Positions 6,365 to 7,197 of a stretch of 64,000 nt of DNA are shown one piece after another. The stretch is from NCBI RefSeq assembly GCF_013167455.1, contig NZ_CP038328.1, one strand, 5' to 3'. The stretch's first letter is position 1; each line of letters starts with the position of its first letter. The notes beneath the pieces are model-generated. The model saw only the letters and a list, made by a program, of their open reading frames with translations. It searched no databases and was not told the origin of the DNA. The position numbers were made by a program, and so were the translations under genes. This DNA comes from Escherichia coli O157:H7 (GTDB taxonomy: Bacteria; Pseudomonadota; Gammaproteobacteria; Enterobacterales; Enterobacteriaceae).

Positions 6365-6751
6365 ATGAGACTGACGCAATACAAAAAAGAGATCCTCAGT
6401 TACTTCACTCCCGACAATCTGGCGTGGGTTACTGCCGAAATTGGCAGTCCGCCGTTTGATGTCTCCGGTGTGGCTTACCTGCTGCATGGTATGGATTCAT
6501 TCAACAGCCGGTATCAGATCGAATCAACAAGGCGCACGCTGGAAGCTATGGTGCGTGATGGTCTTCTTGAGCGGATTAATGTGTATGAGCGTCGTGAGGG
6601 CGCTGGTGATGGTGTTCGTCGAAAGGTGGCGCGTTATGGCCTGCCTGGTCATTCTGTTGTGGTGCGTGACGGTGAGGGCCGGAACGGTGCAATTGACGGC
6701 GAATGTATACGCATCAATGCTACAGATGTGGTGCTGGTGGAGGGGCAATAA
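6365..6751 (+). CDS. hypothetical protein (128 aa), possible winged-helix fold
   Basis: RBS aaagg lies upstream of the ATG. The segment IESTRRTLEAMVRDGLLERINVYERREG... looks like a recognition helix plus wing. No family recognised. It is the only clear plus-strand gene in the island core. Confidence 0.55.
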   Translation: MRLTQYKKEILSYFTPDNLAWVTAEIGSPPFDVSGVAYLLHGMDSFNSRYQIESTRRTLEAMVRDGLLERINVYERREGAGDGVRRKVARYGLPGHSVVVRDGEGRNGAIDGECIRINATDVVLVEGQ

Positions 6752-6810
6752 AAAACCCTGAAAGATTTCTCCGGGTGCTCCAGTTGCACGTGGCAGAAAT
6801 CCTTCAGGGT
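6745..6810 (-). terminator. intrinsic terminator formed by the last hairpin module
   Basis: 16-bp stem (15 of 16 paired), 6755-6770/6795-6810. On the minus strand it is followed by TTTTTATT (complement of 6747-6754). Confidence 0.6.
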
Positions 6811-7143
6811 CAGCCGTAACGGGCCTCTGTACAGAGGGCTCCAGTTGCCCAGAGATGAGCACCCGCTACAGCCTGTTGTGATAAGCCGCTTTACAGTGAG
6901 CTCCAGTTGCTCAAAGAGGCGCGTTTTTATCACAACCTGACCGCGATAACCCGCTGTACAGAGGGCTTCAATTGCCCAAAGAGGCGCATTCTTATCGCGG
7001 CATGACGAAATCACCGTGATGTTTTCGTCGTTCACTCATCCCGATGTGTGGGAGATGCACCGGAATGAGTGCCGAAAAGCCGCTGGCTGGCTTCATGCAG
7101 TCGGACTCAGTTGCCCGGGGCGAACACCATCAACGGCCTTTTG
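6747..7143 (-). ncRNA. candidate ~0.4-kb structured non-coding RNA (or structured 3' UTR of the island operon) carrying the hairpin array
   Basis: On the minus strand the order is TATAAT promoter, then hairpin modules, then an intrinsic terminator with a U-run. The ORFs predicted through it give only repeat-derived peptides. Confidence 0.4.
6755..7000. repeat. four abutting ~60-nt nested stem-loop modules with a conserved core and variable self-complementary flanks
   Basis: Outer stems: 6755-6770/6795-6810, 6813-6823/6862-6872, 6875-6884/6927-6936, 6941-6949/6992-7000. Inner stems: gtgc/gcac, gggc/gccc, tgagc/gctca, gggc/gccc. Each closes a 7-nt loop, tccagtt (x3) or ttcaatt. Confidence 0.85.
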
Positions 7144-7149
7144 GTGGTG

Positions 7150-7177
7150 ATTATAGCGAATCGCGATAATTGAGCAA
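7150..7177 (-). promoter_or_regulatory. putative sigma-70 promoter immediately downstream of the perC-like stop
   Basis: The minus strand reads TTGCTC (7172-7177), a 16-nt spacer, then TATAAT (7150-7155). The -10 is perfect and the -35 is moderate. Confidence 0.45.
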
Positions 7178-7197
7178 ATACGGTGATGAGATGCGTA

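Follow-up and report, generated by a model that had tools for sequence, protein, structure and literature searches.

The 64,000-nucleotide stretch of Escherichia coli O157:H7 DNA analysed here (contig NZ_CP038328.1 of assembly GCF_013167455.1; called the window) carries a P4/PICI-like island (PICI, phage-inducible chromosomal island), one operon of which ends in a tandem array of hairpins at positions 6750-7142. The element repeated in this array represents an undescribed structured RNA family common to the island and to Shiga toxin (Stx) phages, in which it lies within a giant gene. The short-tailed Stx phages carry and spread Shiga toxin genes, and their giant gene, of the ORF80 type, is essential and its workings are poorly understood. 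The shared element suggests an undescribed RNA link between island and phage. Our best reading, which is tentative and which we put at somewhat less than an even chance, is that of a FinP/FinO-like array of trans-antisense RNAs aimed at the mRNA of the phage giant gene. The phage-gene copy of the element and the correspondence of its modules with phage alleles had been missed in an earlier reading made from the letters without database searches (the sequence-only reading), and they change the interpretation.

Between positions 6750 and 7142 the window contains seven consecutive hairpins, five of which (M1 to M5) are paralogues of one element. These features, together with a candidate promoter, are as follows (classes and alleles are those of the phage copies described below; CM, covariance model).

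6750-6810, minus strand: M1, hairpin and U-run, class B type (phage L088/L089); inverted repeat I1, supported by folds
6813-6872, minus strand: M2, core of the phage L078 (P2) type; CM match of 76.9 bits
6875-6936, minus strand: M3, outer stem GTTGTGATAA/TTATCACAAC and inner stem GAGC/GCTC; inverted repeat I7 (10/10), CM match of 67.5 bits
6941-7000, minus strand: M4, outer stem shared with the P1 and L063 alleles of Stx phages; inverted repeat I12 (9/9), CM match of 77.8 bits
7004-7071, minus strand: two spacer hairpins (7004-7029 and 7033-7071) between M5 and M4; inverted repeats I13 and I5
7075-7142, minus strand: M5, class C type (phage L090/L091/L093); phage BLAST match of 88.9%, and fold
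7150-7177, minus strand: candidate sigma-70 promoter TTGCTC-16-TATAAT, invariant in eight island variants

The sequence-only reading had described four stem-loops with a conserved core around an invariant 7-nt loop. A repeat search recovered all four outer stems and the core: the M1 hairpin (6755-6810) has the stem 6755-6770/6795-6810 (94% complementary), M3 is paired at 10/10 positions (6875-6884/6927-6936) and M4 at 9/9 (6941-6949/6992-7000). The stem of M2, given as 9 of 11 pairs, lies where it was placed and pairs better on the minus strand, where it relies on G·U pairs (-31.4 kcal/mol, vs -24.6 on the plus strand). The four modules stand, and the array grows to seven hairpins by the two spacer hairpins and M5. 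What had been taken for a degenerate fifth core is in fact a full module of a divergent subclass, intact in other islands; in this window a 1-nt deletion has done slight damage to its apical loop. After M5 comes U4 on the minus strand and CUUUUGG on the plus strand. The spacer hairpins form island-conserved helices in the alifold consensus, are unrelated to the modules and have no match (7001-7075) in the phage collection.

The outer stems of M1-M4 are mutually unrelated and each is self-complementary. Inside them is a shared core of about 38 nt, seen as direct-repeat families D1-D3 with a spacing of 61, 62 and 65 nt. The module cores are 76-84% identical to each other, and TRF, for which the units diverge too far, called no tandem repeat at the array. 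Outer and inner stems are separated by a middle helix of 3 bp that covaries (CGC/GCG, CTC/GAG or TTC/GAA). The loop (6781-6787, 6842-6848, 6904-6910 and 6969-6975 in the window) proved not to be invariant: it reads TYCARTT, and both variable positions toggle between modules and between islands. The two positions switch together, TCCAGTT vs TTCAATT, among modules and among close islands.

The M1 hairpin and its U-run on the minus strand, pointed out at the outset, are real. M1 combines a 16-bp outer stem with the apical sequence GUGC-AACUGGA-GCAC, and from these features it is the predicted intrinsic terminator of both array and operon. The form of a Rho-independent terminator is found in M1 on the minus strand and in every phage copy on the antisense strand; a simple terminator scanner misses them all, probably because such hairpins are larger than its settings for stem and loop allow. 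At the other end of the array the proposed TTGCTC-16-TATAAT is present, and its -10 hexamer ends 7 nt short of the M5 hairpin base. Its -35 hexamer matches the consensus at only 3/6 positions, so that a consensus scanner does not call the site. Read-through from perC, the gene immediately upstream, would also transcribe the array. Positions 6750-7177 may therefore specify a minus-strand non-coding RNA of about 0.4 kb, perhaps with its own promoter at 7177-7150.

A BLAST comparison with phage genomes placed M4 (91.8%) and the M5 region (88.9%) in Stx-converting phages. In the short-tailed Stx phages (Sepvirinae) the 61-nt module is an in-frame part of a gene some 8.4 kb long, whose product is a polyvalent protein of about 2,800 aa with LPD5, LPD1, MuF_C and LPD38 domains; the module falls in the linker immediately after MuF_C. 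The copy in strain Sakai is located as follows.

1,301,547-1,301,614 of Sakai NC_002695.2, minus strand: phage module

In phage Sp5 the giant gene is ECs1242 (ORF80); its deletion leaves DNA-filled heads without tails and no infectious particles, and DNA packaging remains normal (PMC5155283). Since the gene is needed for tails and infectious particles it is a plausible point of attack, and since packaging is normal in its absence the module is not a pac site. No lambda cosN occurs in the window.

The homologous site was extracted from 57 viral contigs. It falls into three allele classes, the outer stems of which are unrelated yet self-complementary.

Class A, P1 allele: outer stem GCCGCGATAA/TTATCGCGGC
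Class A, L063 allele: P1 outer stem, different middle helix
Class A, P2 allele: outer stem AACCCTGA/TCAGGGTT
Class B: long stem AACCCTGAT.../...ATCAGGGTT
Class C: GCCGCTGA.TGG/CCATCAACGGC

All phage alleles fold into one long hairpin. The peptide encoded there is the least conserved part of the region, save for an invariant LQL at the apical loop; as every allele nevertheless folds, the structure is kept by compensatory change within a coding sequence. On the antisense strand every phage copy is followed by a U-run (e.g. GGCUUUUUCUUUAUU and GGGUUUUGUUUUUU), and the antisense copy would be an antisense terminator or a small cis-antisense RNA. On the same strand of all phage classes a TTGCGN-17-TAnnnT aligns position for position with the island promoter. 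A -1 frameshift programmed at the A-run that precedes the phage hairpin was considered and rejected, no canonical X XXY YYZ heptamer being found in frame, by eye, in any class.

Two further observations concern the phage site. The module marks a mosaic junction in the giant gene: phages L090 and L091 are of class C upstream of the hairpin and of P1 type downstream (A1 alignment columns ~150-190, compared with L093 and L041). A second hairpin, which could be a relative of the module or a chance likeness, occurs in the gene just upstream (ECs1241 type). It was seen in phage 933W (L098, ~3990-4075) and at the same site in L005, L006, L009 and L017, with the outer stem CGTCGCTGG/CCAGCGACG and an apex containing GACTCCAGTTGC; in one allele a stem change gives a G·U pair on the antisense strand.

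The island modules correspond to different phage alleles. M1 is of class B (47/57 to L088), M4 of class A (55/60 to P1/L041) and M5 of class C (54/59 to L091), and the core of M2 comes closest to P2 (47/60 to L078, a loose match). M1, M4 and M5 thus match three distinct phage allele classes and M2, loosely, a fourth allele within the class of M4. An alignment of eight islands (88-100% identical) showed that the five-module layout, the two spacer hairpins and TTGCTC-16-TATAAT are kept in all of them. M4 switches between the window type and an allele 59/60 identical to L063 (KY174), and M5 between L091-like and L093-like forms (57/60; M13007); these switches go in step with the phage alleles. 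Stems change in a compensatory manner as well, M1 in island Z1323 from CCCTGAA/TTCAGGG to CCCCGAA/TTCGGGG, and likewise M2 among islands. In the JNEC-KY176 island (L105, 1497-1564, equivalent to window 6890-6960) a 65-nt deletion fuses M3 and M4 into a chimera, which indicates unequal recombination between array units.

The check on folding that the sequence-only reading had proposed came out in its favour: compared with 100 shuffles, z for the 456-nt interval was -6.6 (minus strand) and -4.8 (plus strand), and 0/100 shuffles folded as well. The class A structure has three tiers, an 11-bp outer stem, a 3-bp middle helix and, beyond a single C-G pair, a 4-bp inner stem closing the 7-nt loop. 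The stems covary as had been claimed. Across 27 distinct class A modules 96.4% of the cells are paired, vs 32-47% when the 3' partners are slid; 14/19 pairs have changed on both sides, and 0/500 shuffles reach the observed covariation score. From the islands alone alifold derives 135 consensus pairs, 11 of them with compensatory changes. The internal loops CCUCUUUG and UCUGUACAG are conserved in class A and not in classes B and C, so that the apical hairpin alone is universal; its loop and closing pairs are conserved outside any reading frame. Selection on a folded nucleic acid rather than on a peptide, the view taken from the beginning, is supported, since none of the module periods (61, 62 and 65 nt) is divisible by three and the indels are not the same from island to island.

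The relevance of the minus strand, also anticipated, is borne out by G·U pairs and alifold energies. That strand folds better in 46/55 unique modules. The unique modules have 156 G·U pairs on it vs 79 on the plus strand; with only the phage copies counted, the figures are 43 vs 11. Over the full length of the island transcript the RNAalifold energy is -180 kcal/mol (minus strand) vs -139 (plus strand), and the shared helices leave 20 non-pairs vs 119. The minus-strand helices hold 105 G·U cells, which would be mismatches (C·A) if read on the plus strand. The strand that folds is thus the minus strand, antisense to the phage gene. Its loop, AAYUGRA, contains YUNR in 37/37 unique modules.

The array is the 3' end of a minus-strand operon that, according to the annotation of an identical locus and Pfam, comprises an integrase, a D5-type primase (9127-10953), a hypothetical gene, a single-stranded DNA-binding protein (SSB), a FinO/ProQ-domain protein and PerC. 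The earlier placement at the end of a primase-ssb-FinO-perC unit closing in a terminator hairpin is thus correct, as is that of a FinO/ProQ-domain gene just upstream. The genes next to the array are these.

7198-7491, minus strand: PerC-family gene, last coding gene of the operon, the array being directly 3' of it; Pfam PerC (E = 2.7e-29) and annotation
7511-7927, minus strand: FinO/ProQ-domain protein, minimal, 138 aa; Pfam ProQ (E = 7.4e-26)
6365-6751, plus strand: convergent open reading frame (ORF) of 128 aa, facing the array

The 138-aa protein also matches ProQ and FinO families of NCBIfam, and ProQ, RocC and FinO in the PDB (E 1e-12 to 5e-10). Its gene is situated about 370 bp upstream of the array and adjoins it in 9/9 islands read. 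FinO-family proteins bind terminator hairpins and promote antisense pairing, the binding platform of the domain being a terminator hairpin with a 3' U-tail (PMC9977716). By its domain and position the protein is a candidate chaperone of the hairpin RNA.

We infer from the above that the array would be transcribed, possibly from its own promoter, and that its RNA would pair with phage mRNA in vivo, bind protein and affect the phage, in the following manner. The island would express a set of trans-acting mimics of the phage antisense hairpin, several of them matching different allele classes. The FinO-domain protein would bind the modules at the terminator hairpin and 3' U-tail, stabilise them and aid annealing. 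The YUNR-type loop AAYUGRA of a module would make the first contact with the complementary hairpin in the giant-gene mRNA, and pairing would spread into the stems and lower or truncate synthesis of a protein needed for tail assembly. With several modules the array would cover a wider range of phage lineages. A more far-reaching version, which we think rather unlikely, has the array as a heritable, Cas-independent set of antisense hairpins copied from one structured site of several Stx-phage lineages, refreshed by allele exchange and equipped with a FinO-domain chaperone to control or block tail assembly.

The proposal follows FinP/FinO in its logic: a FinO-domain protein, terminator hairpins with a U-tail, YUNR loops and complementarity to an mRNA hairpin occur together. 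As in FinP/FinO of the F-like plasmids and Inc/FopA of IncI, a mobile element encodes a FinO-domain protein and a structured stem-loop RNA that ends in a terminator hairpin with a U-tail (here M1 followed by the U-run, and M5 by U4), has a YUNR loop of a kind fit for kissing and is complementary to a target mRNA hairpin. The modules are the reverse complement of the in-frame phage hairpin, at 92-98% identity (M4 and M5 alleles) or 78-86% (M1 and M2); M3 is without a partner. The arrangement differs from FinP/FinO in that the proposed target is on a phage and the RNA would act in trans rather than as a cis-antisense of its own element; the array is opposite no island gene, and the phage copy alone could be cis-antisense. 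It differs further in having five variant modules in tandem instead of one RNA, and a target in the middle of an 8.4-kb coding region and not in a 5' untranslated region (UTR) or ribosome-binding site.

Several points weigh against the trans-antisense proposal. The phage promoter-like site matches at 8/12 positions and a scanner finds no promoter there; its hexamers and the A-run lie within conserved coding sequence (ILYPEDIRK, and K/E-rich codons) and may reflect protein constraint. With the scanner negative in the island too, the promoter evidence is weak. Both the island RNA and the phage antisense RNA are predictions from sequence. M3 has no counterpart among the sampled phages (46/62 at best) and the nearest match of M2 is only loose. 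Many island loops have C at a position that is U in every phage sampled (AACUGGA vs AAUUGRA), so that the predicted kiss with the phage sense loop would contain a C·A mismatch. Islands of the window type reside together with L063-type phages, yet their M4 is only 53/60 identical to L063. Silencing a tail gene would also hurt the island's own transfer, were it a satellite of these phages. Lastly, distant FinO-domain homologues (about 50% identity, and in viral contigs) have no comparable array downstream. On the loop itself we observed that the sampled phages use only CAA at the second loop position and that the CAG form (AACUGGA) is island-specific.

The same structure, strand, promoter and terminator evidence would fit a family of trans-acting small RNA (sRNA) paralogues directed at other targets, an explanation we find unlikely though still worth keeping in mind. 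Here the phage element would be an sRNA gene placed antisense in a tolerant linker, of which the island has collected five, and host, island or other phage mRNAs would be bound through the exposed, CU-rich internal loop or the apical loop. The conserved internal loops of class A and the mismatch between the island loop variant and the phage sense loop agree with it, and in pathogenic E. coli the spread and duplication of sRNA families carried by prophages are on record (bioRxiv 10.64898/2026.05.13.724894). It has difficulty with classes B and C, in which only the apical hairpin is kept, it gives no reason for outer stems that track phage alleles, and no candidate target was identified. That loop mismatch would vanish were the plus strand the active one, for the island CAG loop pairs with the phage antisense loop by G·U. 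As a 3' UTR of the 128-aa ORF, which stops 3 nt before M1 with no terminator between, and with CUUUUGG after M5, the array could then be a decoy that mimics the phage sense hairpin, absorbs the phage antisense RNA and de-represses or mistimes the giant protein. The much poorer plus-strand fold, and the placing of both the invariant TATAAT and the strong M1 hairpin with its U-run on the minus strand, make this quite improbable.

A role at the level of DNA would account for the mosaic junction in L090 and L091, the alleles evidently exchanged between phage and island, and the KY176 deletion by recombination between modules. The modules might be homology patches or cruciform hot spots at which phage Red recombines island and phage into packageable cointegrates, or mimics of a pac site or origin, in an island for which Pfam found no terminase gene. 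We judge this improbable: the Sp5 deletion argues against a pac site (PMC5155283), the G·U bias of one strand points to single-stranded RNA, conserved promoter and terminator features frame the array, and a need for homology leaves stem covariation in a coding gene unexplained. Nor do we give much credence to a passive structured 3' end which terminates or insulates the convergent units and guards the mRNA from 3' exonucleases, its phage likeness being functionless captured DNA. The array does stand between convergent genes, M1 is a good terminator and the M5 loop is damaged in this window; a single terminator would suffice, however, whereas 114 genomes retain five modules trimmed exactly at hairpin boundaries, with stems changed in a compensatory way, alleles replaced, and the apical loop and closing pairs conserved outside any frame.

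The remaining explanations, several of them put forward in the sequence-only reading, are very improbable. A CsrA/RsmA sponge was suggested by the GGA-containing loops, and like CsrB/RsmZ the array is a multi-hairpin RNA with GGA in some of them. The motif is found in 11/24 island and 9/13 phage loops, AACUGGA alternating with AAUUGAA, and is thus not conserved; the long three-tiered stems and AAYUGRA loops (vs ANGGA) differ as well. The hairpins stand in tandem, as would be expected of a REP/BIME-like array or of type III antitoxin repeats. There are no dispersed copies of the kind seen in REP, BIME and ERIC families: the 64-kb window has none besides the array, each phage gene has one, and the matches outside E. 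coli are chance-like. In type III toxin-antitoxin systems identical repeats directly precede a toxin gene; the modules are not identical, no gene follows them on the minus strand and PADLOC gave zero matches among the genes neighbouring the array. A peptide-coding repeat could appeal to translation of the phage element within the giant protein and the invariant LQL, and is at odds with the module periods and island indels, which break any frame.

Some other RNA systems share features with the array. The CI RNA of P4 and the C4 RNA of P1/P7 (RF01695) are small structured satellite or phage RNAs which control phage-type genes by base pairing, as proposed here; the island has a C4 RNA of its own, and the array is without an RF01695 match and at the other end of the operon. 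ToxI arrays are tandem structured RNA repeats in phage-host conflict, and phages can carry single pseudo-repeats of them. Their identical units, each some 36 nt long, precede the gene of a toxin endoribonuclease that processes them, whereas the units here are unlike, without a toxin gene, and at an operon 3' end. In Vibrio cholerae the satellite PLE encodes an sRNA, SviR, that acts on transcripts of the helper phage ICP1, a concept shared with our reading of the island. SviR is a single sRNA with unrelated sequence, structure, host and chaperone, and not a multi-allele array derived from the phage target. CRISPR arrays compare by analogy only, as tandem chromosomal units matching different phage lineages. 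Here there are neither identical repeats nor cas-like ORFs nearby, the conserved core is itself phage-derived, the variable parts that would be "spacers" pair across the core to form stems, and a single phage site is involved.

The sequence-only reading had recognised no known RNA family in the array, and the Rfam scans agree. Except for noise at 13.9 bits, an E-value scan of 5500-8500 gave nothing at 6745-7180, and a gathering scan of the whole window returned only C4, isrK and JUMPstart. A literature search gave no match for the module sequence, and the element is described neither in Rfam nor in the literature searched. The Pas sRNAs of enteropathogenic and enterohaemorrhagic E. coli prophages were rejected on account of their other context (between esterase and holin genes, or in a structural operon).

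Among 5,426 complete E. coli genomes the element has two contexts only: the array, seen in 114 genomes, and LPD38/LPD5 genes, each with one copy. The median is 1 place per genome. The island is thus present in about 2% of these genomes, mostly Stx-producing E. coli. By estimate, the giant phage gene is present too in about 97 of these 114, vs about 6% of other genomes, a comparison confounded by phylogeny. Co-residence is not obligatory: in E. coli strain 4 (NZ_CP045209.1) the island (L138) has an L063-type M4 at 2501-2561 (98.4% over 61 nt), and this 61-nt module is the only match in that genome to a 551-nt query from the phage giant gene. A search of 185,579 species representatives with the core pattern yielded 8 chance-like matches in unrelated GC-rich bacteria, and neither motif searches nor a covariance model built from the modules turned up another copy in the window or the phage genomes. 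A metagenome scan with the giant-protein alignment returned mostly the same phage family and little added diversity.

Other features of the window are listed below.

11982-12069, minus strand: C4 antisense RNA (RF01695, 73.8 bits)
12096-12172, minus strand: isrK (RF01394, 52.1 bits)
25836-25874, plus strand: JUMPstart (ops) element in the chromosomal part of the window, outside the island (RF01707, 55.2 bits)

C4 RNA and isrK are adjacent and upstream of Icd-like and AntA/AntB antirepressor genes, and their presence (11982-12172) identifies the island as a P4/P1-type immunity element; this RNA immunity module is separate from the hairpin array. A cos PICI of the EcCICFT073 type was rejected for want of lambda cosN in the window, and EcCIEDL933, a capsid-forming PICI, was rejected as this island. 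The 128-aa ORF, retained beside the array in most islands, belongs to no Pfam, NCBIfam, PHROG or PADLOC family; its single-sequence AlphaFold model (pLDDT 48) permitted no fold search, and it is not a fragment of the giant phage protein, to which it has no similarity. On its array side the island is flanked by fragments of IS66-family and IS3-type transposases and by another PerC-family ORF, either truncated or duplicated (3494-5185 and 5809-6273, minus strand); its end there has a decayed look. ARAGORN found no tRNA or tmRNA.

Placed beside a FinO-domain gene, the island array is a candidate for RNA-level cross-talk between the island and Stx phages. Should the trans-antisense reading be wrong, the element would remain a structured RNA family not described before, in which covariation within coding sequence is unusually clear. 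Should it be right, riboregulation of the FinO type would extend from plasmids to the conflict between phages and islands, and mobile elements would have a new way to keep pace with phage variation. It would also provide a handle on Stx phage production. The more far-reaching version would amount to a novel class of RNA-based island-phage interference that could influence the spread of Stx phages.

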